A stretch of 64,000 nt of DNA from Planctomycetaceae bacterium (GTDB taxonomy: Bacteria > Planctomycetota > Planctomycetia > Planctomycetales > Planctomycetaceae). The stretch spans positions 71,499 through 135,498 of the forward strand of contig JAWKTY010000017.1 in the NCBI GenBank assembly GCA_041398865.1, written 5' to 3'. Under the pieces are notes generated by a model. The model was not told the DNA's origin, ran no database searches, and was given only the letters and a program-made list of their open reading frames with translations. Position 1 is the first letter of the stretch. The number at the start of each line of letters is the position of its first letter. The translations under genes were made by a program, and so were the position numbers. Shown here piece after piece: positions 3,001 through 60,962 of this stretch.

Positions 3001-6000
3001 AGGCAAATGCCGCAGACTTCCCCAACGGCACAGCGGTCACCACCACAAACCTGGTCGATGCTGTCGTCTACGACACCGATGATGCGGACGACGCAGGTCT
3101 GCTGGTCCTGCTGAACGGCGGAGAACCGCAGCTGAACGAAAATGCCACAGGAGCCAAGGACACCCAGTCGCTGCAGCGTCTGCCGAACGGATCCGGTGGA
3201 GCTCGCAACACGTCAACCTATGGCCTGGCCACTCCGACGCCCGGTGCCGAAAACGCGGCTGATCCGACGCTGACGGTCACGATCGATCTGCCCGGCATCA
3301 GTGAAAACGGCGGAACAGCCACCGGCACGGTCACTCGTTCCGGAACAACCTCGGGTGATCTGGTGGTGAATCTGTCCAGCAACGATACCGGCGAAGCCAC
3401 GGTTCCGGCCACGGTCACGATTCCGGATGGTCAGACGTCGGCGACGTTCACGATTACAGCAGTTGATGATGCGGTGGTGGATGGAACTCAGACCGTCACG
3501 ATCACGGCGGCGTCAGCAACCTTTGTGGACGGGACGGACACCATTGATGTGACCGATGATGATGTCGCCACGCTGACGCTGTCGATTGACCTGGCGTCAA
3601 TCAGCGAAAACGGCGGGACCGCCACGGGTACGGTCACTCGCAATACGAGTTCATCCGGTGATCTGGTGGTGAATCTGTCCAGCAACAATACCGGAGAAGC
3701 GACGGTTCCGGCCACGGTCACGATTCTCGACGGTCAGACATCTGCAACGTTACCATCACCGCGGTTGATGACTCGGTGGTGGATGGCACTCAGACCGTGA
3801 CGATCACCGCGGCGTCCGCCGGCTTCGTTGACGGCAGCAGTTCCGTGGATGTGACGGACGATGATGTTGCCACGCTGACGCTGTCGATTGACCTGGCGTC
3901 CATGAGCGAAAACGGCGGGACCGCGACGGGCACGGTGACACGGAATACAGGGTCCTCCGGTGACTTGGTTGTCACTCTGTCCAGCAATGACGCCAGCGAA
4001 GCCACAGTTCCGGCGACGGTGACGATTCCGGACGGTCAGACATCGGCGACGTTTACCATCACAGCTGTTGACGATGCGGTGGTGGATGGAACTCAGACCG
4101 TGACGATCACGGCGGCGTCCGGAGTCTTCGTGGATGGAACGGATACGATTGATGTGACCGATGATGATGTTGCCACGCTGACGCTGTCGATTGACCTGGC
4201 GTCGATGAGCGAAAACGGCGGGACCGCCACGGGCACCGTGACTCGCAATACGGGGTCCTCCGGCGACTTAGTGGTCACTCTGTCCAGCAATGACACCAGC
4301 GAAGCCACAGTTCCGGCGACGGTGACGATTCCGGACGGTCAGACATCGGCGACGTTTACCATCACAGCTGTTGACGATGCGGTGGTGGATGGAACTCAGA
4401 CCGTGACGATCACGGCGGCGTCCGGAGTCTTCGTGGATGGAACGGATACGATTGATGTGACCGATGATGATGTTGCCACGCTGACGCTGTCGATTGACCT
4501 GGCGTCGATGAGCGAAAACGGCGGGACCGCCACGGGCACCGTGACTCGCAATACGGGGTCCTCCGGCGACTTAGTGGTCACTCTGTCCAGCAATGACACC
4601 AGCGAAGCCACGGTTCCGGCGACCGTCACGATTCTCGATGGCCAGACATCGGCAACGTTCACGATCACCGCGGTTGACGATGCGGTGGTGGATGGAACTC
4701 AGGCCGTGACGATCACGGCGGCGTCCGGAGTCTTCGTGGATGGAACGGATACGATTGATGTGACCGATGATGATGTCGCCACGCTGACGCTGTCGATTGA
4801 CCTGGCGTCGATGAGCGAAAACGGCGGGACCGCCACGGGTACGGTGACTCGGAATACAGGGGCGACCGGCGACTTGGTGGTGAACCTGTCCAGCAACGAT
4901 ACCGGCGAAGCGACGGTTCCGGTGACGGTCACGATTCTCGACGGCCAGACATCCGCGACGTTCACAATCACCGCGGTTGACGATGCAGTGGTGGATGGCA
5001 CTCAGACTGTCACGATCACCGCGGCGGCCGGAGTCTTCGTGGATGGAACGGATACGATTGATGTGACGGATGACGAAACTCCCACGCTGACGCTGTCGAT
5101 TGATCTGGCGTCAATGAGCGAAAATGGTGGGACCGCGACGGGCACGGTCACTCGGAATACGGGCTCGACGGGCGATCTGGTGGTGACTCTGTCCAGCAAT
5201 GACACCAGCGAAGCCACGGTTCCGGCCACGGTGACGATTCTTGACGGCCAGACGTCAGCGACTTTCACGATCACCGCGGTTGATGATGCCGTGGTGGATG
5301 GAACTCAGACGGTGTCCATTACCGCAGCAGCCGCTACATTCGCCGACGGAACCGACAGCATTGATGTGACTGATGATGAAGTTGCGACACTGACTTTGAC
5401 TTTCGATTCGATCTCGATCAGTGAGAATGGTGGGATCGCCACGGGAACGGTGACTCGGAATACCGGTACCTCCGGTGCGCTGGTGGTCAGTCTGTTCGTG
5501 GATGATGGCTCCGAGGCCACTGTGCCTGTGAGTGTCTCAATTCCTGATGGCAGTGCCTCAGCGACATTCTCGGTCACGGGGCTCAATGATTCTATTGTCG
5601 ATGGAACTCAGGTCGTGACGGTTCGAGCCGAAGCGGCGGGACTTGTGGCAGCAGAGGCGACTCTGGACGTAACGGATGTCGATTCCGCGAAGGTCAGCAT
5701 CGCCGGCATTCAGAATGCCCATGAACTTGGGCCTCAGAATGGCCGCTTCATGGTCTCGCTGTCCAGGGCTGCCGAACAGGACGTCGTCGTCAGTTACACG
5801 GTGAATGGCACAGCAACCAGCGGTGTTGACTTTACGGTGTTGAGTGGTCAGGTGACGATTTCCGGCGGTCAACTGTCAGCTCTGATTGATGTTCAGGTCA
5901 TTGATGACTTTTTCGCTGAGATCACGGAAACCGTCAATCTGACTCTGGGAACGGTCACCGCAGTCGGAGATGTTTCACTGGAAGAGACTCAAGAGTCGGC

Positions 6001-9588: not shown

Positions 9589-11132
9589 TTCGTTATCTGC
9601 TGACATTCAAGCTGTCGATTCGAGCTGCACTTCGGGGTCTGCCGGATTTCATTGCGGCGTACATGCGCAGCCGCCGCTTGCGGATGATTCTGCCTGCTCT
9701 GCCTGCCGTTCTGCTGACCGGGTTTCTGCTCAGCACCCTGCACCACTCGTCGGCTCCGGAATGGCGCAGCGAACTGCAGCAGAGGTTTGACGACCGCTGC
9801 AGGCAGGCACTGGCGGACGGAGATCTGAAGTCCGCGGAATTCAGTTTCTCCCGGCTGATGTCGATGACGAATGATCCCGTCCGGCAGACCTTCAATTTTG
9901 CGTCTCAATTGTACGAGCAGTCCCGGATTTCCCGGGAACCGTCCCTGACGTGGACAACGGCAGATCCGGACTTCGCGGTTCAGGATCCATGGGGACACCG
10001 CGCGCTCAGTCTGCTGCAGTCGATTGCTCCTCGACAGGGCACGCTGCCCGGTCATCCGGAGGCTCATCTGCTGCTGGCCGAACACTGGCAGTCACGTCAG
10101 CCGGAAACAGCCGTCACCAGACTTCACGTGCTGCAGCATCGTTATCGAGGCCGCCCCGGGGACACCGCATCGGCACTTGAATTGGCTCGATTCCTGTCCG
10201 AGCATCAATATCACCAGCACGCGGTGGAAGTCCTGCTTCCGCTGCAGCAGGAGAACGCTCAGGTCCAGCTTGCACTGGTGGCCGGCTACAATCGATTGCA
10301 GGATCATCGAACCGCCAGACGCTTTCTGAAGTCGGCAATTGACCTGCTGCAGCGGCAGATCGACGAGGTACCTCAGGACGCAGCAGTCCGAATCAGACTC
10401 AGTCAGGCTCTGGCCGCTGATGATCAGCTGCTGACTTCGATGCTGGTGCTGGCCGAAGGCTGTCGAACGTCGGGCCATGAAAACCTGGCGGATCTGCTGA
10501 TTGAACGATACTCGATCTGGCTGTCTCTGATGTCACCTCAGAAGGTGCGCCGTCAGCTGAACGACATCCAGCTGGCCCTACATCCTCAGCAGCCGACTCC
10601 TGCAGATTCGGAATCCTACCCGCTGCGGACACTGACGTTGTCCGGTGGAGTTTCCGTTGAGCTGCCGGAGCCGATTGAGCAGTTTCATCAGGCACTCATC
10701 AATGGCGAAGGTCGCTGGCTGGTTCCGCTGCTGCTTGGGACTGACCACGCTTCGCTGGGTGAATACGAAACGGCAGTTGAGCTGCTGACCGAAGCGATCC
10801 GGGAAAAACCGGACCATCCGGTCGCAGCGAACAATCTGGCATGGACGCTCCTGCAGCTGCACTCAACGTCTGACCGAAAGCACCTTCCCGCCGACAGGGA
10901 TGATCGGCGGAAACTGGAGACAGCATGGCAGTACGCGAACATCGCTGTTGCGGAATGTCCGGGCCGAGTCTCCTTCCGGGAAACTCGAGGGATGGTCGCA
11001 GCAGCCACAGGACACTGGCAGGTGGCGTTCAATGATCTGCAGACCTGTTCGGATGCCGGAATGCAGTCTGTGGAAGTTCAAACCCGCCTCACTCAGGCAT
11101 GGCGAAACTCGGCAACGATGTTCAAAGAGTAA
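9585..11132 (+). CDS. TPR-repeat protein with N-terminal membrane anchor
   Basis: GTG start overlapping the exosortase TGA (GTGA at 9585-9588) with GGAGG upstream; TPR-like AVELLTEAIREKPDHPVAANNLAWTLL and FRETRGMV motifs. Confidence 0.8.
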   Translation: MIRYLLTFKLSIRAALRGLPDFIAAYMRSRRLRMILPALPAVLLTGFLLSTLHHSSAPEWRSELQQRFDDRCRQALADGDLKSAEFSFSRLMSMTNDPVRQTFNFASQLYEQSRISREPSLTWTTADPDFAVQDPWGHRALSLLQSIAPRQGTLPGHPEAHLLLAEHWQSRQPETAVTRLHVLQHRYRGRPGDTASALELARFLSEHQYHQHAVEVLLPLQQENAQVQLALVAGYNRLQDHRTARRFLKSAIDLLQRQIDEVPQDAAVRIRLSQALAADDQLLTSMLVLAEGCRTSGHENLADLLIERYSIWLSLMSPQKVRRQLNDIQLALHPQQPTPADSESYPLRTLTLSGGVSVELPEPIEQFHQALINGEGRWLVPLLLGTDHASLGEYETAVELLTEAIREKPDHPVAANNLAWTLLQLHSTSDRKHLPADRDDRRKLETAWQYANIAVAECPGRVSFRETRGMVAAATGHWQVAFNDLQTCSDAGMQSVEVQTRLTQAWRNSATMFKE

Positions 11133-16074: not shown

Positions 16075-16181
16075 TTAACACCTCTTCTATGCATGCGCTG
16101 TTTCCCGGGCTTCGGCTCGGAAAAGAGATTCCGGCTGGTCCCCATGTCCCGCGGCTCAGCACGGTTCATCGACCAGTGTCT

Positions 16182-16240
16182 GTAGGTCAGGCTCCTGCCT
16201 GACGATCGGATCAGAACTGTCAGTCAGGAGCCTGGAGTGG
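16182..16240. repeat. REPIN-like element, GTAG-GTCAGGCTCCTGCCTGAC family
   Basis: GTAG + hairpin GTCAGGC-TCCT-GCCTGAC, 15-nt spacer, degenerate inverted copy; a further degenerate copy at ~16263-16283. Confidence 0.8.
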
Positions 16241-34619: not shown

Positions 34620-34756
34620 TGACAGGGTCCGGCTGAATCGTCCAATTCCTGCCTGATCTCCCCGATGCCTCTGCAGACTGTTCGCCAGAATCCGTCTGCA
34701 GCAGCTTCGGGTTGTTTTTTTCAGCCTCCTGCTCGCTGACACCAACCGAGGCCCCG

Positions 34757-43053: not shown

Positions 43054-43162
43054 CTGAAACGTCGTCCTGAAAAACACCGTCAGGCGTGGCAGGAACGATC
43101 TTGGACGTTCCATTGATCACGTGTCCGCACCGGCTGTGCTCAAGATTCTCAGTCTGTTGTCT

Positions 43163-43221
43163 GCAGGTCAGGCTCCTGCCTGACAATCTGATCAAAGCCG
43201 TCAGGTCTGAACCTGACCTGG
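43163..43221. repeat. REPIN-like element (GTCAGGCTCCTGCCTGAC family)
   Basis: GCAG-GTCAGGCTCCTGCCTGAC, 15-nt spacer, GTCAGGTCTGAACCTGAC-CTGG. Confidence 0.8.
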
Positions 43222-47604: not shown

Positions 47605-48771
47605 GTGTTGAGTGTTCAACCCGGTCCTGTCGCACTTCCGGGATTGGGGGCAATCTTGAAACTCAATTTTCGACACTTTCTGGCAGCCTGTGTACTGGCA
47701 GGCACCTGGGGGCAGGCTGCCGAACCCGGTTCCACACAATCCGACTTCGGGCCGCTGACGATTGTTCCCACCGACGTGCAGTATCTGCCTCTTGAGCTGG
47801 ACGTCGCTCAGGCACCGGCGGTCGTTCCGCTCACCGATTCGCTTCGTCGTCCAACGATTCAGCAACTTCAGTACGAAGGCGAGTCTCTGACATCGGGAAC
47901 TCAGCAGGTTCAGTACACCCCGGCCACTGAATTTGTCTCGTCTGCCCCGACGTACTGCCCTCCCGCTTACTGCGGCGAAGGCTGTGTCTCCGGTTGCACT
48001 GAGGGCTGCTGCCAACAGAAATGCGGTTCGTGTGAGTCGGCACCACGGTTGTTTGGTTCTGTCGAAGTTCCGTTCCTGCAGCCGCGAATCAGCGGAGCCT
48101 TTCCGGTCTTCAATGTGTCGCCGGCAGCAGATCGTCTGATTGAACCTGACCACACGCCGTCGCTTCGTTTTCAGGCGGAATTCCGTCCCGAACCGACACT
48201 GGGCATTCGCGGGCGATACTTCACGTTCGACAGTAATTCCCCCTTCGGAAATCCGTTCCAGCCCGCTGAGTTCGGGATTCGTCTGGACGTCGCTGACCTG
48301 GAATTTGTCATCCACAAGGCATCCTGCCGCTGGAATTTCGATCTTTCCGGGGGGGTGCAGTACAGTCGGCTCGAGTATTCCGCCACGGTGCCCACGGCTG
48401 TCGGAGTCGGATCCGTGCGATTCGAAGGCGTGGGACCGGTCTTTGCGGCGAATGCAGAACACAAACTGGGCAGCACCAGCCTGGCAGTGTTCGGCGGTGT
48501 GCGAGCCTCGTACCTGATGGGAGAAACTCGAAACGCCGCGCTGCTGGTGAATGTTCCGCGATCAACCATTCACGACGAAATGATGCAGGTCTATCAGAAC
48601 CAGCTGGGAGTGGTCTGGAGACCGCAGTTCTTTGATCAAATCGGCATTGCTGTCAAAGCAGGCTGGGAAACTCAGTTCTGGCTGAACGACACCTTCGCCG
48701 ACGACAGTTATGGCATCGGTTCGAATCTCAGTCTGACAGGTCCGATGGTTTCGGCAGAAATCACCTTCTGA
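47605..48771 (+). CDS. Outer-membrane beta-barrel protein (planctomycete BBP7/Lpg1974-like); start possibly 47656
   Basis: Signal peptide, P/Q-rich and Cys-rich N-terminal linker, alternating amphipathic strands, C-terminal beta-signal VSAEITF. Confidence 0.7.
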   Translation: MLSVQPGPVALPGLGAILKLNFRHFLAACVLAGTWGQAAEPGSTQSDFGPLTIVPTDVQYLPLELDVAQAPAVVPLTDSLRRPTIQQLQYEGESLTSGTQQVQYTPATEFVSSAPTYCPPAYCGEGCVSGCTEGCCQQKCGSCESAPRLFGSVEVPFLQPRISGAFPVFNVSPAADRLIEPDHTPSLRFQAEFRPEPTLGIRGRYFTFDSNSPFGNPFQPAEFGIRLDVADLEFVIHKASCRWNFDLSGGVQYSRLEYSATVPTAVGVGSVRFEGVGPVFAANAEHKLGSTSLAVFGGVRASYLMGETRNAALLVNVPRSTIHDEMMQVYQNQLGVVWRPQFFDQIGIAVKAGWETQFWLNDTFADDSYGIGSNLSLTGPMVSAEITF

Positions 48772-48785
48772 GAAAGGGCTTTGCG

Positions 48786-49692
48786 ATGATCAAGCCCTAT
48801 CAGCATGCGGACTACATCGAATTGTCTGTTCATTTTCGGTGTAATCTGAAGTGTCAGCACTGCATGATTCTGGACAGCATGCACTGGCTGAAACCCGCAG
48901 ATGATGCGGAATTCGAAGCTCTGCTGGAAGAACAGCGTCGCGAACAAAAATGGAAGGGCCTGATTCTGACCGGCGCCGAAGTGACGCTTCGGAAGGATCT
49001 GCCCGACCTTGCTGTGCGAGCTCGTTCGGCTGGCTTTGAACGAGTCGGATTCAGAGCCACGCGATGCGACTGGCCGACCCCGCCTACTGCGAGAATCTGG
49101 TCGCCGCCGGCATTGATGAATACTTCATCAGTGTCACCGCCGCCGACGCTGAGACTCACGACAGGATCACCGAGGTCCCGGGATCGTTTGAGAAAACCAC
49201 ACGAGCCCTGCGCAATCTCGACCAGATTCCGGGAGTTCGGCTGATGACGAATACGGTGGTGACTCGGTTGAGTTACCGGACGGTGCCGGAGGTGATTGAC
49301 CTGTTCAGCGATCTGAAGCAGCTGATTCAGATGGACTTCTGGGGCTACTGGCCCATGGAAGAAGATGGCAATCCGGAACTGCTGGTGTCGCATCTCGAAG
49401 TGCGGCCATACCTGAAAGAACTCATCCGACGAGCTCGGCGGCTGATCGGTATATCGAAATCAAAAACTTTCCGGCCTGCCTGCTGGGCGAGGACGCTCGG
49501 GTTGTGATCAATGACCAGCCCGAACTTCGAACAGATCCCAGGTTCTGGACGGAATTCAATCGCAACGGATTTCATCAGTGTGCGTATCGCGACGTGTGCG
49601 GTTCGAATCAGTGCCTGGGACTGAATCGAGCCTATGTGAATCGTTACGGCTGGCTGGAAGACGTGCTGTCACCCATGCCACGAGCCGCGTGA
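48786..49692 (+). CDS. Radical SAM protein (two frameshifts, ~49050 and ~49440), ~302 aa when repaired
   Basis: HFRCNLKCQHCM (CxxxCxxC), LTGAEVTL, ETHDRITEVPGSFEKT, NFPAC and C-terminal QCAYRDVCGSNQCLG across three frames. Confidence 0.88.
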
Positions 49693-49745
49693 CCCCCAAA
49701 CCGACGGTGTCGCGATGAATCCGGGTGGTGAGAAATTGCAATCCG

Positions 49746-49799
49746 GAAGGTCGGGCTCCCGACAATTCGATCGAGGTGTCAGGCGGGAGCCTGACCTAC
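49746..49799. repeat. REPIN-like element upstream of the first halogenase
   Basis: GTCAGGCGGGAGCCTGAC-CTAC (reverse complement GTAG-GTCAGGCTCCCGCCTGAC) with a degenerate left partner and 14-nt spacer. Confidence 0.8.
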
Positions 49800-49817
49800 A
49801 GGTTGGATTGAGTAAAC

Positions 49818-52775
49818 ATGGACCGAGTCTCAGACAACCGAATTCAGGCGAACTCAGCCAAGCATTCTCTGATTGTGGTCGGAGGTGGCACGGCAGGGTG
49901 GATGACGGCTGCGCTGCTGAGTCTGAATCTGCGGCCGAAAGAGTGCAGTATCACGGTGGTGGCTGAAGACGATTCCGGCATCGGTGTGGGGGAAGCCACG
50001 ATTCCGCCGATTCTGAGACTGCTGAGGCATCTGCGGGCAGACGAGGCCGAGTTCATGCAGGCGTGCGACGCCACATGGAAACTGGGCATTCAGTTTTCCG
50101 ACTGGAAGACCATCGGCCATGACTACTGGCACCCCTTCGGAATATGCGGAGCTCGCATCGACGGTCGTGACCTGTTTCCCTACTGGCTGATGGAAAAGGA
50201 ACGGCCTTATCAGTCGTATTCGCTGCAGTGCGCCGCTGCCGTCGCCGGGAAGAGTCCTCACGCCCGGAATACTCGATCGCCCATTGCCGCTTCCGGAAGC
50301 TACGCCTTTCACCTGAACGCTCGAAAACTCTCCGCGTGGCTGCAGCAGCAGGCGACGGCTCGTGATGTTCAGCACGTTCGCGGACAGGTTGTTTCTGCAG
50401 AACGCAGTCAGACGGGCGATCTTACAACCGTCACGCTGAACAACGGCCAGGCACTGTCCGCGGACTTCTTTGTGGACTGTTCAGGTTTCGAATCCGTTTT
50501 GATGCGAAGCACGATGCAGGATCCTTGGATCGATGCCGGTGGCCACCTGCTGTGTGATCGGGCAGTCGCCGTCCGAACGCCGGGAACGCCGCTGATTCCT
50601 GCACACACCCGGTCGCTGGCGCTGACGGCCGGATGGAGCTGGGAGATTCCGCTGTTCAGTCAGCGCGGACTGGGCTACGTCTACAGCAGCCGTTTTGTGT
50701 CCGACGATGATGCATGGCGGCAGCTCATGCGAGCTCATCGGCTGAACGAAGACGGCGTGTGGGCTCCGCAGTTTCTGAAGATGGCCGTCGGTCGCCAGAC
50801 GAGCTTCTGGAAGCAGAATGTTCTGGCCGTCGGTCTGGCAGCCGGGTTTGTCGAACCGCTGGAATCCACCGGCCTGCATCTGGCTCAGGTCGGCATCGAA
50901 CGTTTTCTGGACCTGTTTGCCATCAGCGGCGACATGTCCTCGGTTCGCGACCTTTACAACCAGGAAATGACAGCTCTGTTCGACGACGTGCTGGACTTCA
51001 TTCAGCTGCATTACTTTCTCAGTCAGCGTGAGGATGCCTTCTGGAAGGCCGCACGAGACCTGCCACTTCGTCCGGCTCTGCAGCATCGTCTGCAGCTGTT
51101 TGATGATTCGGGTACTCTGGATGCGCGCCCGCCGGAAAGCTTCCCGGAGAGCAGTTACTACGCGGTGCTTGCCGGTCATCAGCGGATGCCGAAACGTCCT
51201 CCGGCGCTGGCCCTGGCTGTGGATCGGGAACGCCTGACAGTGGTAATGCAGGCCATTCAGGATCAGAATCGATCCGCTCTGCGAGGCCTGCCGCTGCATG
51301 AGGAAATGCTGAGACACGTTCACGGTTCTTCCCTGGCGCGACTTCCTGAAATGTCGGCAGCCAACTCAAAACTCAGCCGTATCGCGATGGTCTGCCTGAC
51401 TCCGGCCGTCGACAGTCACGAACATGACGGAGCCGATCTTCCGTCATACGGAATCCATCGCGTCCTGGCGGCAGTTGTTGCTCATCCGGACCTGTCCGAC
51501 GTTGAGATTCAGCTGTTTGACCTTGAAGTCGCCGATGTGAACGGCTACGTCGATGACCTGCTGGCCTTCGATCCGCAGATCATCGGGTTCTCGCTGTTTG
51601 TCTGGTCGATGGATTGCCTGATTCAGGTGGCCAGGACAATCAAACAGAAGCGGCCGAACTGTGTGATTGTTTTTGGAGGCCCGTCTGCCCGACCTCAGCT
51701 GCTGGACCTGCCACACTATCGCCAGGCCATCGATTACGTCGACGCCGTCGTGACTCGGGAAGGCGAAGAAACCTTCTGCGACATTGCTCTGGCGGTTCGC
51801 AATCGGCGAAGCACCGTCAGTATGTTTGACACTCTGAAGCATGTGTCCGGACTGGACCTGCCTACGCTGCTCGGCTGGCAGAATACCGGCTTTCGAACTC
51901 CACCGGAGAACCTGGATTCGATTGTCTCGCCCTACCAGATGGGCCTGATGAATTACCAGAGCGTCGGCTATCTGGAATCATTTCGCGGCTGTCCGATGTC
52001 CTGTGCCTTCTGCGAATGGGGAGCGAAGGACATCTCGAAGGGCTGCTTTTCGGAAGACTATCTGACTCGTGAACTGGAAGCTCTGCAGGCCAACGGCTGC
52101 CCTGCAGTGTTCAACGTCGACGCCGGACTGAATCTGAATGCCGCCGCCTTTCGCAATCTGGCCAATGCGGAAAAGAAGGTCCGATTTCTGAAGGACATTC
52201 AGCTGTGGTGCGAAATCTATCCGTCAAAGATTCGAGATGAACACATCGAATTTCTTTCGGAATGCGGACCGTCGTATCTGGGCGTCGGGCTGCAGTCATT
52301 CAATCCGGATGTGCTGAAACGCCTGCAGCGACCCTATGGTCGCGAGAACTTTGGTCCGGCCATTGAACGGCTGTCGTCGGTCGCAGCCAACATTGACGTA
52401 CAGATCATTTACGGCCTGCCAACGGATACCTGGGACGGCTTTATCGAAACGCTCAGCTATGCCCTGACGCTGCCGGTGACCGTTCGTATCTACCATTGTC
52501 TTGTGCTGCCGGACGCGCTGATGACTCGCGGGCTGCCGGAATGGGAAATGAAGTACGAACCGTACACGCTGTCGATGCAGTCGTGCGTCGGCTGGTCAGA
52601 ACAGGACCTGCTGGATATGCGAGCCATGCTGACTCGCGAGGCTCTGGCCTGCGGCGGGACGGCCGGTGACTTCTGGTGGTCGTTTCCACCACCGTCGCAG
52701 CGGACCACCATTCCGAATGTGTCTCAGCGTCACTTTGTTCCGGCGGCTGCTTCCGGAGTTCGAAAAAGTGCCTGA
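49818..52775 (+). CDS. Flavin-dependent (tryptophan halogenase family) halogenase in frame with a B12-binding radical SAM domain
   Basis: aa 1-511: GGGTAGW, GVGEAT, DATWKLGIQF, GWSWEIP, FVEPLESTG. aa 512-985: FSLFVWS, FGGPSA, REGEE, RGCPMSCAFCEW, GLQSF. Confidence 0.88.
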   Translation: MDRVSDNRIQANSAKHSLIVVGGGTAGWMTAALLSLNLRPKECSITVVAEDDSGIGVGEATIPPILRLLRHLRADEAEFMQACDATWKLGIQFSDWKTIGHDYWHPFGICGARIDGRDLFPYWLMEKERPYQSYSLQCAAAVAGKSPHARNTRSPIAASGSYAFHLNARKLSAWLQQQATARDVQHVRGQVVSAERSQTGDLTTVTLNNGQALSADFFVDCSGFESVLMRSTMQDPWIDAGGHLLCDRAVAVRTPGTPLIPAHTRSLALTAGWSWEIPLFSQRGLGYVYSSRFVSDDDAWRQLMRAHRLNEDGVWAPQFLKMAVGRQTSFWKQNVLAVGLAAGFVEPLESTGLHLAQVGIERFLDLFAISGDMSSVRDLYNQEMTALFDDVLDFIQLHYFLSQREDAFWKAARDLPLRPALQHRLQLFDDSGTLDARPPESFPESSYYAVLAGHQRMPKRPPALALAVDRERLTVVMQAIQDQNRSALRGLPLHEEMLRHVHGSSLARLPEMSAANSKLSRIAMVCLTPAVDSHEHDGADLPSYGIHRVLAAVVAHPDLSDVEIQLFDLEVADVNGYVDDLLAFDPQIIGFSLFVWSMDCLIQVARTIKQKRPNCVIVFGGPSARPQLLDLPHYRQAIDYVDAVVTREGEETFCDIALAVRNRRSTVSMFDTLKHVSGLDLPTLLGWQNTGFRTPPENLDSIVSPYQMGLMNYQSVGYLESFRGCPMSCAFCEWGAKDISKGCFSEDYLTRELEALQANGCPAVFNVDAGLNLNAAAFRNLANAEKKVRFLKDIQLWCEIYPSKIRDEHIEFLSECGPSYLGVGLQSFNPDVLKRLQRPYGRENFGPAIERLSSVAANIDVQIIYGLPTDTWDGFIETLSYALTLPVTVRIYHCLVLPDALMTRGLPEWEMKYEPYTLSMQSCVGWSEQDLLDMRAMLTREALACGGTAGDFWWSFPPPSQRTTIPNVSQRHFVPAAASGVRKSA

Positions 52776-54189
52776 TGTCGTGCCGTCAGCATGTCATTCC
52801 ACCAAGCGGTCCGGTCGCCGGATCGTGCTGGTGGCCATGTATCCGGCTCGCAATCCGGCCATGCCGGAATTCATTTCCAATCACGGAATTCGCATGGTCG
52901 AAGCGACTCTGCGAGCGTCCAGCCTGCCGGGGCTGGAGGTGACCGTTTTCGATCTGCACGACGCTGTCGCGGACGACCTGCTGCAGGCCATCACCGACAT
53001 CGATCCGGACGTGGTCGCGTTTTCCGCGTATCTCTGGTCGTTCCCGCTGTTTGCTGATGTCGCCGTGCGCCTGTACCGTGATGATCCCCGGCGGGTTGTG
53101 CTGCTTGGCGGTCCTTCGGCTCATCCGGCCATGCTGGATCAGCTACCGTTTCACGATCTGCGATCCGCTTTCGACGCGCTGATTGTGGGAGAAGGCGAAC
53201 ACACAATTCTGGAACTGATCAGTCTCTCCGATCGCAGTGCCTCAGCGATCAGCAATGTGCGAGGCATCGCTCAATGGAATGGTCGAGCGTGGCATCAGAC
53301 CGCGAAACGGCCTCTGTCGGACCTGAACGAACTTCCGTCGCCCTATGAAATGGGATTGGTGCCGCCAGGCGGTTTGGGTGTGCTGCAGACCTATCGAGGC
53401 TGTCCGTATACGTGTTCCTTTTGTGAATGGGGAACCATGGAGTCGCCGAAACGGGTTCGATCGGCCGACAGTCTGGCTCGCGAATTTCACGAGATGGCCG
53501 ACATCGATGTTGATGGAGCTCTGCTGGTGGACGCCGGACTGAACCTGAATGCCCGGGCATTCGAACAACTGGCCCTGGCAGCCGAAACAACCGGCTTCTT
53601 CCGTCACCGACGCCTGATTTCCGAAGTGTACCCCGCGAAGATTCAGGAAACGCATCTGCGATTTCTGGAGGACGTCGGTGAACCACTGATCGGCATCGGG
53701 CTGCAGTCGTTCGACAACGACGTGCTGGCTCATGTCGAGCGTTCGTTCGAGGAAGACCGGTTCGTCGCCAATGTTCAGGACCTGACATCAGTGGCTCGCG
53801 TTGCGATTGAAATCATCATGGGGCTGCCTGGCGATTCGCCGGAGAAGTTCCGCGAGAACTATTATCGAGCTCGACAGTTCCCGTGTGCTTTGCGAGTCTA
53901 CCACTGCTGCGTGCTGCCATCCGCTCTGATGGTGCGGTCGCCACCGGAACACCAGCTGAACTACGACCCGGTGACGCTGAAGATTCGTTCGTGCATGGGC
54001 TGGACTCAGGACGACATTCACGACGCATGCGAATTTCTGAACGGCGAAACCCGAACTCAGGCCGGCCAGATCGGTGAATACTTCTGGGTCTTTTCGACGC
54101 CTCAAAACGCAGCCCGTTTTACGGAAGATCATTTCGCGATTCGAAGCGTCCGAGCACCGCTTTCTGCTGAGAGGGAAAGGATTCCGTAG
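52768..54189 (+). CDS. B12-binding domain radical SAM protein (class B methyltransferase-like)
   Basis: GTG start with GGAG upstream, overlapping the previous stop; FSAYLWS, LGGPSAHP, GEGE, RGCPYTCSFCEW, GLQSF. Confidence 0.9.
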   Translation: MPDVVPSACHSTKRSGRRIVLVAMYPARNPAMPEFISNHGIRMVEATLRASSLPGLEVTVFDLHDAVADDLLQAITDIDPDVVAFSAYLWSFPLFADVAVRLYRDDPRRVVLLGGPSAHPAMLDQLPFHDLRSAFDALIVGEGEHTILELISLSDRSASAISNVRGIAQWNGRAWHQTAKRPLSDLNELPSPYEMGLVPPGGLGVLQTYRGCPYTCSFCEWGTMESPKRVRSADSLAREFHEMADIDVDGALLVDAGLNLNARAFEQLALAAETTGFFRHRRLISEVYPAKIQETHLRFLEDVGEPLIGIGLQSFDNDVLAHVERSFEEDRFVANVQDLTSVARVAIEIIMGLPGDSPEKFRENYYRARQFPCALRVYHCCVLPSALMVRSPPEHQLNYDPVTLKIRSCMGWTQDDIHDACEFLNGETRTQAGQIGEYFWVFSTPQNAARFTEDHFAIRSVRAPLSAERERIP

Positions 54190-54191
54190 GC

Positions 54192-55058
54192 ATGACAGAG
54201 ACTCTTCAGCAATCGCCTGTCCGCCGGCAACTCGGAACTCCTCAGGCGTTTTTCCGCCATCTGGAACTTCACGCCGATCAGGCCGATCTGTGTTCGCATG
54301 TCATCAGTGAACTGCGATCCGGCAGCCTGACGGGAATTGTTGTGCGGGGAGTTTACGACGAAGGCTTCATGGCAGATGTCACACAGCGTCTGGAAGCTCA
54401 TGACCCGCCGTTTCTGAAAACCATGTTTCCGGAGAAGTTTCGGTCGTGGTTTTACGGCCGGAATCTAAATCTGATGGGCACCGATCCCGCCACGTATTTT
54501 CAGCAGGCAGCCGAATTTCAGCAGCACATGCAGCAGCTGTTTCCCGAGAAACGAGGGTTTCAGCAGACGGTGATGAAGCTGTTGTCGGAACTGGACGGCG
54601 GAAGACCCTATCGAGCGGCTCCGGGCCCCGATGTCGGTCAGAGTTACATGCCGACGACATTTCGGGGCCATGCGGAAGGCGGCTACATTCCGCCGCACTG
54701 CGACAATGAGCAGTCCGTTCGCCCGGCCTATGAACATCTGGCAACGATGGTCTCACCTCACATGTATTCGATGATTCTGATGATCGCGGCTGCCGACGCA
54801 GGAGGAGATCTGGAGGTCTTCGATTACCACATCGAACCGCAGGAAGCCGGAGAACGTACCGGAGCCATCGCCGGGAAAGTTGACCTGAATCAGCTGTCCT
54901 CCGTGCAGATTCGGCTGCAGCCCGGAGACATGGTGATCGTCGATTCCGGACGCTATCTGCATCAGGTAACTCCCGTGATCGGCCCGACGACGCGGTGGGT
55001 CGCCTGCAGCTTTATGGCTCATTCCCGGGAACGAAATGCCGTCTACTGCTGGGGATGA
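54192..55058 (+). CDS. 2OG-Fe(II) dependent oxygenase
   Basis: YIPPHCDN (HxD), GGDLEVF, PGDMVIV, YLHQVTPV (distal His), RWVACSF (2OG-binding Arg). Confidence 0.85.
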   Translation: MTETLQQSPVRRQLGTPQAFFRHLELHADQADLCSHVISELRSGSLTGIVVRGVYDEGFMADVTQRLEAHDPPFLKTMFPEKFRSWFYGRNLNLMGTDPATYFQQAAEFQQHMQQLFPEKRGFQQTVMKLLSELDGGRPYRAAPGPDVGQSYMPTTFRGHAEGGYIPPHCDNEQSVRPAYEHLATMVSPHMYSMILMIAAADAGGDLEVFDYHIEPQEAGERTGAIAGKVDLNQLSSVQIRLQPGDMVIVDSGRYLHQVTPVIGPTTRWVACSFMAHSRERNAVYCWG

Positions 55059-55062
55059 TGCC

Positions 55063-55902
55063 ATGACAATTCTGACGCGTGCAGCACACAGATTCCCGGC
55101 TTATTTCGATCGACTGATTGAATCATTTCACGCCGGTCACTCAGGACGCCATGCGCATCTGGGATACTGGCACCCGGCACCTGAGACCGAAACGTCAGCG
55201 ATTGGTTTCGAAGAAGCTCAGGCAGCTCTGAACGAGCACCTGATTGCCATGACAGTACCGAGATCCGGAAGCCGAATTCTGGACGTCGCCTGTGGATTTG
55301 GCGGTTTGATTCAGCAGTTGGACCACGTTGTGTCCGGAACCGAACTGCATGGCATTAACCTTGATGACCGTCAGCTGAACATCTGTCAGCAGTTGAGATC
55401 AAATCATGGCAACGTTCTGCGCTGGCAGGAAGCGGATGCCTGTGATCTGCCGTTTGCCGATGCGATGTTTGATCTGATCTTTTGTGTGGAAGCCATCTTT
55501 CATTTTCAATCACGCGAGCAGTTCCTTTCGGAAGCGAAAAGAATTCTTCGACCCGGCGGTCGGCTGCTTCTGACGGATTTCACGCTGAAGGAATCGTCCG
55601 CTCTGCCGGCTTTCTGCATGGAAGCTGTTCTGACCGATGGTTACGGGCCCTGGCCGGACCCCTGGTGTCGCCGGGGAAACGTGTTTCAGCTGCTGAATGC
55701 TCAAGGCTGGCAGAACATCGTTTGCGAAGACCTGACTGCGGAAACACTGCCAACCTATCGCCATATTCTGCCCCGCGGAATGGATTCGGCCCGTGATCCC
55801 GGCGATCCCGCCACTCGCTCAGCTTTGATGCTGCAGTGGCTTCAGCAGAACGGCCATCTGACCTATGACTGCATTGCGGCACACACCGGAGCAAGCCTAT
55901 GA
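55063..55902 (+). CDS. Class I SAM-dependent methyltransferase (HxGYW type)
   Basis: HAHLGYW, ILDVACGFGG, ADACDLPFADAMFDLIFCVEAIFHF, RILRPGGRL. Confidence 0.9.
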   Translation: MTILTRAAHRFPAYFDRLIESFHAGHSGRHAHLGYWHPAPETETSAIGFEEAQAALNEHLIAMTVPRSGSRILDVACGFGGLIQQLDHVVSGTELHGINLDDRQLNICQQLRSNHGNVLRWQEADACDLPFADAMFDLIFCVEAIFHFQSREQFLSEAKRILRPGGRLLLTDFTLKESSALPAFCMEAVLTDGYGPWPDPWCRRGNVFQLLNAQGWQNIVCEDLTAETLPTYRHILPRGMDSARDPGDPATRSALMLQWLQQNGHLTYDCIAAHTGASL

Positions 55903-56489
55903 CACACGTGATTGCCATCTGCGGAACGATGGGAAGCGGAAAATCCACCGCGATCGCCCGGCTGCAGTCAAGACTGCCCAACTGCGAAACCCTGTTTGAA
56001 GACGATTTCAACCCGGCTCCCCTGAAGTCACTGGATGAAGTCCAGGAGTGGTTCGAAGCGGGCGGACGAGTCAGCGAATTTGATCTGTCAGCACTGGTTC
56101 AGCAACTGCGTGCGGCCACGTCTGCCGGGCGAGCCATCGTGCTGCTGGAAACGCAGTTCGGCAGAATGCATCCGGCGCTCAGACCCCTCATTGACCTGCA
56201 GTGCTGGATCGATGTGGAACCCGATCTCGCACTGGCCCGCAAGGTGACTCAACTGGCCCGACAGTTCGCCGGCGACGCGGAATCGCGCAGCGCTGATGCG
56301 GCAGAAGCATTGCTCTGGCTGGCGGAATTCTGCGACGGCTATTCTCAAATCACTCGAAAACTCTTCCTGCAGCAGCGAACGAGCGTTGGCCGGCAATCAG
56401 ACATTCAGATTTCCGGACACGCGTCCCCCGATGATGTCTGCGATCGCATCTGCCGATCACTGCCGTCATGGATGGCGGATGCCGCGTGA
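55899..56489 (+). CDS. P-loop small-molecule kinase (uridine kinase-like)
   Basis: VIAICGTMGSGKST (Walker A), VLLETQFG, WIDVEPDLALARK; ATGA overlap with the upstream gene. Confidence 0.75.
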   Translation: MTHVIAICGTMGSGKSTAIARLQSRLPNCETLFEDDFNPAPLKSLDEVQEWFEAGGRVSEFDLSALVQQLRAATSAGRAIVLLETQFGRMHPALRPLIDLQCWIDVEPDLALARKVTQLARQFAGDAESRSADAAEALLWLAEFCDGYSQITRKLFLQQRTSVGRQSDIQISGHASPDDVCDRICRSLPSWMADAA

Positions 56490-56548
56490 GTCGGTCAGGC
56501 TCCCGCCTGACAACAGGAACGGAGCTGTCAGGCAGGAGCCTGACCTGC
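56490..56548. repeat. REPIN-like element upstream of the second halogenase
   Basis: GTCAGGCTCCCGCCTGAC, 15-nt spacer, GTCAGGCAGGAGCCTGAC-CTGC. Confidence 0.85.
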
Positions 56549-56601
56549 TGAATTTCAGAACACTTCACGGCGTTGGGGACTGTCCACAAGGGAACAAAAC
56601 G

Positions 56602-58155
56602 ATGACAACATCAAAATCCGTGAAACAGACTCGGACACTGAGACTGCCCAAGCGAGTGGTCGTGCTGGGAAATGATGTCGTTGCCTGGATGGCAGCCGCG
56701 ATGCTGGCGAAGCATTTCATTTCGCTGCAGGTTCGCACCACGATCTGCCCGGGTGAAAATTCCGTCCCGCCTGGTCATGAGACGTTTGTTTCATCGCCTT
56801 CGCTCACGGCGTTGATTCGCAACTTCGGTGCTGACGAACACGACGTTCTGAAAGCGTGCAACGGGACCTATCGACTGGCAACTCAGTTTTCTGACTGGGC
56901 CAGTGAAGGCCGCGACTTCTGGCAGCCTCTGGGCCACGAAGAAATTCGCATGGCGGGCCTGCCGCTGTTTGACATTTGGGCCGCCGAACGCATTGCCGGT
57001 CGGCTGCTGCGTCCGCTGCATTCGTACACAGCTCACTGGACCGCATCGCTGGCCGGAAAAGCGCCGCATTCGTTTTCCGGAACGTCTCCACTGGCAGCTT
57101 CGGGGCAATACGGTTTTCATGGCGAAGCTGCCGGACTGGCTGGCTGGTTTCGAGCGACCGCGCTGAGCCTCGGCGTCGAGGAAATTTGCGGGCCGCTGGA
57201 TCAGACATTCGTCAATGGTCGCGGCGGATTGGCGCAGGTGAAGCTGACATCCGGCCAGGCGGTTCCAGGCGACCTGTTTCTGGAATGCCGCCCCGCACTC
57301 GCCGGCGATGAGATAGAGGACCTGAGCGACCGGTTTCTGTTCGATCGCCGAGTTTTCTTTCGAACCCCGGGAGCTCGCCGGATTCATCCTTTTACTCGAG
57401 TGACAGCCCATGACGCGGGCTGGTCCCGAACTGTGCCGCTGGCGGCTGAAGTGGAACACAGCTACGACTTCTGCAGTCGATTCCAGACTGATGATGACGC
57501 GGGAAAGTATCTCCGCAGCGTCGTCGATGGGCGTCTGGACAGTCCGCTGGATTCTGCGCCGGAACTGCACTTTGCGGACGTTCGACATTTTCTCCGGCGG
57601 GTGATCTGGAAAGACAACGTCCTGCATCTTGGCCGAAGTGCTCAGCAGCTGGAACCGCTGGCGGCCAACGACATGCACCTCGATCTGGCGGGAATCGAAT
57701 TGCTGCTGGAACTGGTCCCCGACCGCAGCATCGCTCGGTCAACTCGGGATGAGTATCTCAAGCGCAACACGGCCGTGCGGCAGGATGCGGTTCGCGAACT
57801 TCTGCTGCACCACGCCCTGCTGAATCGCAGCGATGCGCAGACCTGTGCGACCATCGCTGAAGCCGCTCGAACGGACGAGGTTCAGCAGCTGCTGGACGTT
57901 TATGAGTCTACCGGTGTGGTGCGAATTCACGCTCCGGAATCGACTCCGGCCGATCATCTTCGCAGTCTGCTGGCCGGTTGCCACCGCATGCCGCAGCGTC
58001 CGGTGATGGCGATTCGAAGTCTGGAGACAGGGCGACTGCAGCAGGCACTGCGAGACCTGGTGCAGCATCACGAAGCCACAGTGAAAGACCTTCCGCTGCA
58101 TGAAGAACTACTGGACTGGATTCATTCCGGTCCGTTTCAGAAGCAGGCGGGCTGA
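56602..58155 (+). CDS. Tryptophan-halogenase-family paralogue with degenerate catalytic motifs
   Basis: Aligns with the first halogenase end to end (QFSDW..DFWQP, LHSY, APHS, YGFH, LPLHEE), but has VVVLGNDVVAW, NGTYRLATQF, GWSRTVP and LEPLAAND. Confidence 0.85.
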   Translation: MTTSKSVKQTRTLRLPKRVVVLGNDVVAWMAAAMLAKHFISLQVRTTICPGENSVPPGHETFVSSPSLTALIRNFGADEHDVLKACNGTYRLATQFSDWASEGRDFWQPLGHEEIRMAGLPLFDIWAAERIAGRLLRPLHSYTAHWTASLAGKAPHSFSGTSPLAASGQYGFHGEAAGLAGWFRATALSLGVEEICGPLDQTFVNGRGGLAQVKLTSGQAVPGDLFLECRPALAGDEIEDLSDRFLFDRRVFFRTPGARRIHPFTRVTAHDAGWSRTVPLAAEVEHSYDFCSRFQTDDDAGKYLRSVVDGRLDSPLDSAPELHFADVRHFLRRVIWKDNVLHLGRSAQQLEPLAANDMHLDLAGIELLLELVPDRSIARSTRDEYLKRNTAVRQDAVRELLLHHALLNRSDAQTCATIAEAARTDEVQQLLDVYESTGVVRIHAPESTPADHLRSLLAGCHRMPQRPVMAIRSLETGRLQQALRDLVQHHEATVKDLPLHEELLDWIHSGPFQKQAG

Positions 58156-58173
58156 TTGCGGTCATCAACAGCG

Positions 58174-59193
58174 ATGTCGACAGATTACCTGGCTATTGAA
58201 CCGTTTCTGAAAGATGCTCTGCAGGGGCGAGCTCTGCAGAGTGCCTTCGATCTGGGAATCATCGATCGGCTGGCCGCGGCGGACGCCGATGTCACGGTTG
58301 ACGCGGCGCTGAAGGGTCTCGACTGCGATCGACCGGGAGGAAGTTTTCTGCTGCAGGTTCTGGCGTCTGCCAATGTCCTGCGACTGCAGAATGAACAGGT
58401 TCAACTCACGAATGCCTTTCGCAACGCGCTGCGGTTTCGGGATCTCATGATGACCAAGCTGCAGTTCGCTCAGCTGGTCGCGGCCGACTATTTCGAATGC
58501 CTGCCGCAGCTGTTGAGATCTGCGGAAGACTTCATGGGGGCCGCAAAGCTGTTCGAACTGTTCGATTACAGCCGCTGCATTGAGATCACGACCGGCAACT
58601 GCATGCAGGCCTCGCGCTGGATGCAGCTCACCACGATGCTGACTCGATACGAAGGGCCTGTCTGCTGCGACGCATGGGATTTTGGTCGACATCGACACAT
58701 GCTGGATGTTGGAGGCAACAGCGGAGAATTCGCGATGCAGGTCTGCCGCCGCGAACCGACTCTGACCGCCACGGTTCTGGATCTGCCGGTGGTTTGTCAG
58801 GTCGGAATGAGGCACCTTCAGCACCAGCCGGAAGCGAATCGCATTCAGTTTCACGCCGCCGACATGGTGCATGACGATTTTCCAGTCGGCGCAGATCTGA
58901 TTTGCTGGAAGTCCGTGCTGCACGACTGGCCGGATTCGGAAGTTCAGCACCTGCTGCAAAAGTCATTCGACCAGTTGCCCGTCGGAGGCCGCATCCTGAT
59001 TTTCGAACGCTGCCAATGGGATTCCAGTACCTTTCCCGTGTCGTATGGCCAGCTGCCGGTTCTGCTGTTCTTCCGATCCTACCGCAGCCCCGAAACCTAC
59101 GACCGGTGGCTCACAAACTGCGGCTTCCGAAACGTCACGACGAAATTCGTGCAGCTTGATGTCCCGTTTGTGTTGATGAGTGGGGAGAGGTAG
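58174..59193 (+). CDS. O-methyltransferase (Methyltransf_2 type)
   Basis: LQSAFDLGII dimerisation domain, MLDVGGNSG, VLDLP, AADMVHDDFP, KSVLHDWPD, GGRILIFE. Confidence 0.9.
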   Translation: MSTDYLAIEPFLKDALQGRALQSAFDLGIIDRLAAADADVTVDAALKGLDCDRPGGSFLLQVLASANVLRLQNEQVQLTNAFRNALRFRDLMMTKLQFAQLVAADYFECLPQLLRSAEDFMGAAKLFELFDYSRCIEITTGNCMQASRWMQLTTMLTRYEGPVCCDAWDFGRHRHMLDVGGNSGEFAMQVCRREPTLTATVLDLPVVCQVGMRHLQHQPEANRIQFHAADMVHDDFPVGADLICWKSVLHDWPDSEVQHLLQKSFDQLPVGGRILIFERCQWDSSTFPVSYGQLPVLLFFRSYRSPETYDRWLTNCGFRNVTTKFVQLDVPFVLMSGER

Positions 59194-59236
59194 ATTTTCG
59201 GTTCTCGGAGATGATCATCGATCTGAAATCTGAAAT

Positions 59237-60046
59237 TTACCCCGCTCCCTGATAATAGATCGTCAGAAACGGCTGGTCGCTCCGCGTTCGGCCGGCGGAG
59301 ATGTGGCCGACGGTGGCGGCGGCTGTCTTGTGGAGCCATTCGTTCACTTCGTTGTCGGCACAGGTGAAGCGTTCGGCGATGACATGGACGAGGTCCGTGA
59401 TGAGGGCCACGGGCTGCTGAGCGGCGTAGACATTCAAGTCGAATGATCGACGGTCACTGCCTTCTTCCGTGACTTCCAGCAGTCGCATCTCGGCCTTGTC
59501 CGTCTCGCATTCCGGTTCCAGTCTCTGGGCAAGTTGCGACAGTTCAGGTCGCAGTTCTTCCGGCGCCTCGTTCAGAAAGCACTCAGTCAGTGACGACGGA
59601 CCCTGCGGATGAACGTTTCGATAGCGACTGACCACCGCCAGGGACGTGTCATTCATCGACCACTTGAACCCCAGAAACATCAGCCGACCGTCATCGGCAG
59701 ACGTTGCCGGAACGGATGACGACAGTTCCAGGTAGCACTTGCCGATCGCGGTGCTGACTGAGTACTCAAAGCCGAAATGAACAAAGGCCGCCGATCGGAA
59801 ATAGCGACGGATGGCCGTCAGATGCGCGATCGGACTGCTCATCGCTCGGCAGATCTGCAACACTTCATCCACTGAACTCAGTTCTTCAATGGCGGCAGTC
59901 GGCACAGAAAACAGAGCTCGACGCGGTTCGAACATGCCAGGCTGCAGGCGCACGGAACGTTCCGACAGCACGGGCAGCTGCCGATCGATCAGCCACCGTC
60001 GAAGTTCGGCAAGGCCGCTGTTGTCAAACCAGTCCGCCGGAATCAT
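59237..60046 (-). CDS. Hypothetical protein, possible ABBA/PT-barrel fold
   Basis: 269-aa ORF with five putative beta-hairpins separated by helical segments; the fold is inference from pattern only. Confidence 0.6.
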   Translation of the reverse strand: MIPADWFDNSGLAELRRWLIDRQLPVLSERSVRLQPGMFEPRRALFSVPTAAIEELSSVDEVLQICRAMSSPIAHLTAIRRYFRSAAFVHFGFEYSVSTAIGKCYLELSSSVPATSADDGRLMFLGFKWSMNDTSLAVVSRYRNVHPQGPSSLTECFLNEAPEELRPELSQLAQRLEPECETDKAEMRLLEVTEEGSDRRSFDLNVYAAQQPVALITDLVHVIAERFTCADNEVNEWLHKTAAATVGHISAGRTRSDQPFLTIYYQGAG

Positions 60047-60062
60047 AAATCCGCATCTTCCT

Positions 60063-60962
60063 ATGGCTGCACCGTTTTCTCATCAGTCCGTCGATCAGCG
60101 AATTCTGAACGAAAGAATTCGCCCGGGCGACCCTGCGCTGAATTACTGTTTGTGGCCGTACCAGCCGCCGACAGTTCCGGACGGAAAACTGCGAGCCTCC
60201 AGTTTACTGCTGAAAGCCATTCAGGAGATGCCCGCCGCGGACTGGCTGCTGCAGACGGTGGATATCATTCAGGCCGGCCTGGGTGATTTTCGCAGTGTGT
60301 ACGGAATTAAGCAGATTGATGGCCGGTGGTCTCTGGAAGTGTATCTGTACGACTACGAACGGGAAAACCGAGCCGTCTCGATTGAACGCCTGAATGCGGC
60401 CTGTGCCGGTCAGATCTCCCTTCCCGCGACAGTTGGAAGTCATGTGCCGTATTTCATGTTTTCCTTTGACCTTGATGCTCGGGTCGCTCAGGCCAACGGA
60501 CGCATCGAAGTCGTTCATGTTTACATCGGCAATCCGGGAAGCATGGTTTCCAGCGGCATCAGTTACGGGTTTACCCGGGACCCCGACGCCACCGAACTGG
60601 AAAACCTGTACTTCTTCTTCGCCGCCGACAACCGAGCGGAAATCCACGACAAGGTGACCTGTGCGGCCTGTCTGAACGATCCGCAGACGCTGCTGGCGAC
60701 CGTGCTGCCAGAGCAGTTGATGACATGCCACACCATCTGCCTGGCCAACAAGCGATTCAGCAACACGGCGTACTTCTCCGGAATCAACTTGCAGCAGCTG
60801 ATCTGGTTTCTGCAGTGGCAGCAGTATTCGAAATCCTTCTGCCGCTTCATCGACGATCACGCCCACGAACTTGACCATCTGCTGTACGACGTTGGAGTTG
60901 ACTACCAGGTGCGTGATCAGCAGATCCGGTTTACAAAATCCGGAGTCTACGGAGTCTTTTAA
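60063..60962 (+). CDS. Hypothetical protein, possible ABBA/PT-barrel fold
   Basis: 299-aa aromatic-rich ORF from the ATG at 60063 (NYCLWPY, LEVYLYDY, PYFMFSFD, GNPGS, ENLYFFF, YFSGI, KSGVYGVF). Confidence 0.65.
   Translation: MAAPFSHQSVDQRILNERIRPGDPALNYCLWPYQPPTVPDGKLRASSLLLKAIQEMPAADWLLQTVDIIQAGLGDFRSVYGIKQIDGRWSLEVYLYDYERENRAVSIERLNAACAGQISLPATVGSHVPYFMFSFDLDARVAQANGRIEVVHVYIGNPGSMVSSGISYGFTRDPDATELENLYFFFAADNRAEIHDKVTCAACLNDPQTLLATVLPEQLMTCHTICLANKRFSNTAYFSGINLQQLIWFLQWQQYSKSFCRFIDDHAHELDHLLYDVGVDYQVRDQQIRFTKSGVYGVF

Follow-up and report, generated by a model that had tools for sequence, protein, structure and literature searches.

Flavin-dependent halogenases of family PF04820, such as PrnA, RebH, Thal and the BrvH-like enzymes, carry a GxGxxG motif, a catalytic lysine, WxWxIP and EPLES, while class B radical SAM methyltransferases such as KedN5, PhpK and HpnR combine an N-terminal B12-binding domain with a radical SAM core containing CxxxCxxC. 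Natural tandem halogenase-halogenase proteins of about 1000 aa also exist (P0002, P0275), but our literature search found nothing relevant on a halogenase fused to a B12-binding radical SAM protein, or on the planctomycete gene cluster considered here. The window, the whole stretch of 64,000 nucleotides that was analysed, comes from a Planctomycetaceae bacterium and contains, as read, a single frame that joins one protein of each kind:

49818..52775, + strand: fused open reading frame, halogenase plus B12-binding radical SAM protein in one frame (translation and Pfam).

This reading frame starts with ATG and encodes 985 aa, with Pfam matches to Trp_halogenase at residues 18-468 (E 2e-133), to the B12-binding domain at 560-656 and to Radical_SAM at 720-881. 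It resembles the tandem proteins in length and in having the Trp-halogenase domain first; their second half is a halogenase and not a radical SAM protein, and they are found in many contigs, unlike the fusion in the window. The initial annotation described a complete halogenase with all catalytic motifs, joined in one frame to a radical SAM protein beginning at Met512, and as a description of the reading frame this is confirmed by translation, Pfam and alignment to PDB entries: 49818-51350 make up 511 codons, and Met512 is the ATG at 51351, to which residue 1 of the radical SAM homologues aligns.

Both halves are entire. The PF04820 match reaches 446 bits (cut-off 21) and aligns residues 18-468 with profile positions 2-456 of 458, a full-length match as in the described members of the family. 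GGGTAG, the Lys of TWKLGIQF, WSWEIP and (V)EPLES are all there and align to those of a solved tryptophan halogenase. Among PDB entries tryptophan halogenases come closest (E 6e-86), identity to the solved PF04820 members being about 35-40%, while the NCBIfam matches all fall far under their curated cut-offs. By domain and by motifs the first half is therefore a full member of the Trp_halogenase family, with predicted halogenase activity. The second half and the gene that follows it are related to each other:

51351..52775, + strand: B12-binding (class B-like) radical SAM gene 1, 474 aa (homologues align from residue 1; PF02310, PF04055; CPMSCAFC).
52768..54189, + strand: B12-binding radical SAM gene 2, a paralogue of 473 aa with a GTG start (ORF, Pfam, orthologues).

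With 38 bits for PF02310 and 51 bits for PF04055, radical SAM gene 1 exceeds both cut-offs, and its CPMSCAFC has the form CxxxCxxC, so that by domain content and motif it is a predicted cobalamin-binding (class B) radical SAM enzyme with the layout of KedN5, PhpK and HpnR. Among the named equivalog families (KedN5, PhpK, HpnR, TsrM and others) its best match is KedN5, at 88.7 bits against a cut-off of 700, and the resemblance of both paralogues to KedN5, PhpK and HpnR lies far below the curated NCBIfam cut-offs. Gene 2, the stand-alone paralogue whose length the initial annotation had correctly compared with that of the downstream half, is about 36% identical to that half, and the two genes overlap by 8 nt, likewise in the orthologues.

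The fused frame lies within a conserved cluster, the remaining intact members of which are:

47605..48771, + strand: Legionella_OMP-like outer membrane protein, forming the 5' border of the conserved cluster (Pfam, orthologues).
54192..55058, + strand: WelO5-family Fe(II)/2OG oxygenase with H-C-D, Asp standing where WelO5 has Gly166 (PF22814, E 1e-74; PDB alignment).
55036..56489, + strand: class I SAM methyltransferase (to 55902) and P-loop kinase-like protein (55899-56489) (domain, orthologues).
56605..59193, + strand: second flavin-dependent halogenase (to 58155) and O-methyltransferase (58174-59193) (orthologous loci).

Two further conserved genes extend the cluster to about 60959. It thus includes two flavin halogenases, two B12 radical SAM proteins, one small radical SAM protein, a WelO5-like protein, two methyltransferases and a kinase-like protein, and lacks NRPS and PKS genes. 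The WelO5-like protein has H-C-D where WelO5 has H-V-G, and its best PDB match, 5iqu, also has Asp, while 8aut, the other aligned sequence of WelO5 type, has Gly. The Gly or Ala which takes the place of the facial-triad carboxylate in WelO5-type halogenases is therefore absent from the protein encoded at 54192-55058, and with this H-C-D triad it is predicted to be a hydroxylase. It is not unusual for an O2-dependent halogenase and an O2-sensitive radical SAM protein to be encoded in the same biosynthetic cluster, and the content of this one requires no fusion.

Starting from the contigs of the homologues, together with loci from genome and metagenome collections, we obtained eight distinct orthologous clusters from Fuerstiella and Planctomycetaceae MAGs (L002, L003=L009, L005=L011, L006/L013, L007, L008, L010 and L012; contigs include JAVKCM010000147.1, JBDWHY010000040.1, JBDNHJ010000235.1 and CALFOL010000635.1). 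Their gene order is that of the window: Legionella_OMP-like protein, small radical SAM protein (276-302 aa), Trp-halogenase (513-523 aa), B12 radical SAM protein (473-474 aa), second B12 radical SAM protein (458-462 aa), WelO5-like protein, methyltransferase, P-loop kinase-like protein, second halogenase and O-methyltransferase. The halogenase half of the window is 51-67% identical to its orthologues, and radical SAM gene 1 is 78-82% identical to stand-alone homologues of 473-474 aa, which align from their own first residue to 51351. Unlike in the window, the small radical SAM gene is intact in these clusters, and in all eight the halogenase ends in A-[R/K]-A-S-stop and is followed, after a spacer of 9-266 nt, by the first B12 radical SAM protein as a separate gene. 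More broadly, over 20 homologues of the radical SAM half (65-82% identity, 96-100% query coverage, 464-484 aa), several of them named Fuerstiella sp. or Planctomycetaceae, are stand-alone proteins, as are all of the closest homologues, with lengths of 458-484 aa.

The search for full-length fused homologues that the initial annotation had proposed gave the same answer. In an exhaustive phmmer search of 1.84 billion representatives, none of the best 150 matches covered both halves: each aligned to query residues 7-509 or 517-977, never to both, and the sole match in more than one stretch was a tandem halogenase. Since a protein matching both halves would outscore all of these 150, its absence from among them means that there is no fused relative in the set. 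A word-indexed search, in which only the query itself reached 100% coverage, is weak alone, having missed radical SAM homologues 82% identical to the query, a gap closed by the search with the radical SAM half and by phmmer, and a look-up of the exact 985-aa protein found it on record nowhere else. The finding that the initial annotation had named as decisive against a real fusion, that all homologues are separate genes, is thus what the eight loci and the phmmer matches display.

The sequence at the junction indicates how the fused frame came about. The features concerned are:

49818..51349, + strand: flavin-dependent (Trp-halogenase family) halogenase, putatively 510 aa ending in SSLARAS, its stop being reached once the missing base is restored (PF04820, PDB matches, orthologues).
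51341..51342, + strand: site of the missing base, CGA|CTT, where a G would restore GCT TCC TGA, i.e. Ala-Ser-stop (insertion scan; DNA comparison with L002 and L007).
51347..51349, + strand: putative ancestral halogenase stop TGA, out of frame as read (shifted-frame reading).

The initial annotation had noted that in the frame shifted by +1 a TGA at 51347-51349 is followed by a single A and then by the ATG, and this arithmetic is correct; its proposal that one lost base conceals two coupled genes holds in kind. The position it suggested for the loss, the CCC run at 51331-51333, does not. We scored every single-base insertion from 51294 to 51346 against the tails of the eight orthologous halogenases (summed BLOSUM62), and a G after 51341 ranked best, with a score of 186 and 40/80 identities, against 60 and 19/80 for an extra C in the CCC run, which gives a tail ending in SSPGATS-stop. 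The favoured site is about 9 nt from the one first suggested and five bases ahead of the halogenase stop.

Comparison with individual loci points to the same base. The tail of the window protein reads ...HVHGSSLAR-LPE-M, against ...HIQAASLARAS-stop in L007 (the closest, at 67% identity) and ...HPTLFARAS-stop in L002, so that the frame as read is homologous as far as the Arg codon (CGA, 51339-51341) and then diverges from the orthologues. At the DNA level the window has GCG CGA CTT CCT GAA ATG, where L002 has GCC CGA GCA TCC TGA and L007 GCC AGG GCA TCT TAG; a G between 51341 and 51342 would turn the window into GCG CGA GCT TCC TGA A ATG, that is LARAS-stop, one spacer base and the start of the radical SAM gene, with a tail, SSLARAS-stop, matching the ASLARAS-stop of L007. 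The apparent linker consists of three out-of-frame residues (Leu-Pro-Glu), and both the old TGA (51347-51349) and the ATG (51351) are retained; we thus see no remodelling of the junction, in which a linker would have been gained and the ancestral stop and start lost. Because the junction differs from the ancestral sequence by one missing base and the relatives have two genes, the comparison demonstrates that the fusion is a derived state, a single base away from the reconstructed two-gene ancestor.

We therefore regard the locus as follows. The halogenase (510 aa, ending in LARAS-TGA) and the 474-aa B12 radical SAM protein would be encoded by separate genes one base apart, and the absence of one base, of which the G in the penultimate Ala codon is the best candidate, would make the frame skip the TGA and read Leu-Pro-Glu into the next ATG. 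In the organism the halogenase would be translated as far as the TGA and the radical SAM protein would start one base later, probably by translational coupling given the spacing of the genes. If the lost base is a consensus error, like the other three deletions in the window, the 985-aa protein would not exist in the organism. The one-base origin and the two-gene relatives are read directly from the alignments; that the loss is an error rather than a mutation is what we infer, and the other deletions bear on this choice.

The remark in the initial annotation that single-base losses are common in the window is right in so far as there are four 1-nt deletions which break a frame (3751^3752, 49046^49047, 49444^49445 and 51341^51342), with no insertions of this kind, but in at least 20 other genes with Pfam domains the reading frame is unbroken. 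Scanning about 50 ORFs with Pfam revealed no split genes beyond these four sites, and we accordingly reject general noise throughout the window. The deletions outside the junction fall in two genes:

48786..49689, + strand: small radical SAM gene, its relatives encoding about 302 aa, with two frame-breaking 1-nt deletions (orthologue tblastn; three-frame reading against orthologues of 276-302 aa).
3751..3752, + strand: fourth 1-nt deletion, GTT[C]ACC, moving a giant adhesin gene with 303-nt repeats from frame 3 to frame 2 (eight other repeat units; Illumina-derived contig).

Across the small radical SAM gene, tblastn with the orthologues passes from frame 3 to 2 to 1, at 49046^49047 (GTC[C]GG) and 49444^49445 (CTG[G]AT); the segments are each 65-79% identical to the orthologues, CxxxCxxC is preserved and no further damage is seen. 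In the adhesin gene the eight other repeat units read ACG TT[C/T] ACN ATC and the broken unit reads ACGTTACCATC.

Of the four sites, read-derived data reach only that in the adhesin gene. The organism is present at about 3x, mostly with ≥99% identity, in six short-read runs, five from wastewater metagenomes (2024) and one from activated sludge (2016). One Illumina-derived contig (run X2) matches 3657-3769 without mismatch (113 nt) and has a C put in behind 3751, which is the predicted base; it fits the window over 113 of its 180 nt, the first 66 nt mismatching, and may therefore derive from a different strain or from a repeat unit that lies beyond the window. No matching stretch for this contig was found elsewhere in the window. 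The base missing at 3751, like that at the junction, is not in a homopolymer, and one argument against an error at 51341 thereby falls away. Contigs of the six runs have no coverage of 51108-51471 or of the two frameshift sites in the small radical SAM gene, and an exact-pattern scan of genome and metagenome contigs for the junction (TGGCGCGA N{0,1} CTTCCTGAAATGTC) gave 0 matches. By a very rough estimate from depth tables, about 40% of the window is covered by read-derived contigs, which contain no inserted base besides the one at 3751; two 1-nt differences of opposite sign, at 34659 and 37506, lie in non-coding strain variants. The covered part being clean, the assembly is not generally noisy. 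Short-read runs of 0.9 Gb give the organism about 3x, and the source contig measures 177.7 kb, which is a hint that it comes from a long-read assembly. The homopolymer-length spectrum of the window looks like that of the orthologous MAG loci and is uninformative on the platform.

On this evidence we lean towards an assembly error as the origin of the missing base. A real and very recent frameshift, which would have fused the genes by accident in a cluster decaying under relaxed selection, the small radical SAM gene being by then already inactivated by its two frameshifts, and which might leave a 110-kDa chimera as a by-product, is a tentative alternative that we regard as rather unlikely. It would suit the bias of bacterial mutation towards deletions and the grouping of three of the four lesions in 48786-51350, a stretch of 2.6 kb inside a dispensable secondary-metabolite cluster, at least 20 genes elsewhere being undamaged; nor did the Illumina-derived contigs reveal further deletions in the roughly 40% of the window that they cover. 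The grouping of lesions, for its part, could be explained either by a local weakness of the assembly or by real decay of the cluster. However, the broken genes carry no other damage and no in-frame stops, and they are conserved to the same degree as their neighbours. All four lesions are of one type, a 1-nt deletion. The fourth lesion lies in an unrelated gene, and there the read-derived contig has the base. Furthermore, three broken genes of about 55 would seem a high proportion for a free-living planctomycete.

If the base were truly absent, the 985-residue chimera might have both halves active and would then be a natural, days-old 'Rosetta-stone' fusion, a combination of circumstances that we judge improbable. 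Highly improbable is a selected bifunctional enzyme, in which the O2/FADH2-dependent halogenase and the cobalamin radical SAM protein would act successively on one substrate: each half is complete and has its catalytic motifs, and the genes are always adjacent in relatives, and so probably belong to one pathway, but the same architecture recurs in 0/8 orthologous loci and in none of the best 150 matches among the 1.84 billion representatives, the junction skips an old stop that is still in place, and a neighbouring pathway gene, that for the small radical SAM protein, is broken in the same sequence. The 985-aa halogenase-radical SAM fusion is thus not an evolved one, and the locus is either an ordinary pair of genes or the product of a single-base accident; the fusion enzyme that the initial annotation had entertained is unsupported.

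A fusion that was real and selected would have joined oxygen-dependent to oxygen-sensitive chemistry in a way without precedent, and were the chimera real and active, it would mean that O2-requiring and O2-sensitive catalysts could share one polypeptide. In the source contig single-base deletions both split and fuse genes, and oddities among its ORFs therefore need confirmation at the level of reads. The remaining interest of the locus is in the cluster itself, which is of a conserved and uncharacterised Fuerstiella type.

The halogenase–radical SAM reading frame (49818–52775, + strand, 985 aa) lies within a conserved biosynthetic cluster of ~12 kb, which is common to Fuerstiella/Planctomycetaceae MAGs from several environments. 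It contains two flavin halogenases, two B12-radical SAM genes, one small radical SAM gene, a WelO5-like oxygenase, two methyltransferases and a kinase-like protein, while NRPS and PKS genes are absent; at one locus (L002) the cluster is followed by a 47-aa ORF and a protein of > 7600 aa. The features considered here are:

47605–60959: conserved biosynthetic cluster (also loci L002, L003 and L005–L013)
48786–49689, + strand: small radical SAM gene, member of the cluster, broken into three frames
54192–55058, + strand: WelO5-family protein with an H-C-D motif
3–6934, + strand: giant adhesin-like gene with Calx-beta and LapA-like domains and 303-nt tandem repeats
16180–16203, 43161–43184, 49778–49801, 56488–56511 and 56527–56550: intergenic copies of the REP-like element GTCAGGCRGGAGCCTGACCTRCAG

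Two single-nucleotide deletions (49046^49047 and 49444^49445) split the small radical SAM gene, the orthologues of which are unbroken and encode 276–302 aa; the third of its frames holds the conserved Cys-rich C-terminal tail, CAYRDVCGSNQCLG. The adhesin-like gene, which extends past the left end of the window, is likewise divided into two ORFs by a single-nucleotide deletion at 3751^3752, and the C absent from this position is present in a short-read contig from metagenome run X2, which fits the window over 113 of 180 nt. At 34659 and 37506 the window carries one base each that is absent from short-read contigs. Since both positions lie in apparently non-coding stretches and adjoin SNPs, these differences look like strain-level indels rather than errors in the window.

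Public proteins from outside the window that are similar in length to the 985-aa ORF (P0002–P0015 and P0275, ~985–1053 aa) carry solely halogenase-type Pfam domains, and P0275 aligns to the halogenase half in three stretches, as a tandem halogenase–halogenase. This architecture is recurrent in public data and is a real fusion, which could be mistaken for a relative of the ORF. Within the cluster, the WelO5-family protein is predicted from its sequence to be a hydroxylase and not an aliphatic halogenase, its Pfam family name notwithstanding, because Asp replaces Gly166 of WelO5 (giving H-C-D).

The 24-nt REP-like palindrome occurs five times in intergenic DNA of the window, compared to zero copies expected by chance, and is also touched by many unrelated contigs from the same metagenomes. 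It is found at two sites in the cluster, as a single copy 5' of the halogenase start and as an inverted pair ahead of the second halogenase. In a Fuerstiella MAG (L003, JAVKCM010000147.1) the halogenase and radical SAM genes are separated by a 266-nt spacer (9735–10000) containing repeated GCAAGCTGGAAGCTTGCG-type palindromes, which shows that the intergenic distance between these genes is evolutionarily plastic.
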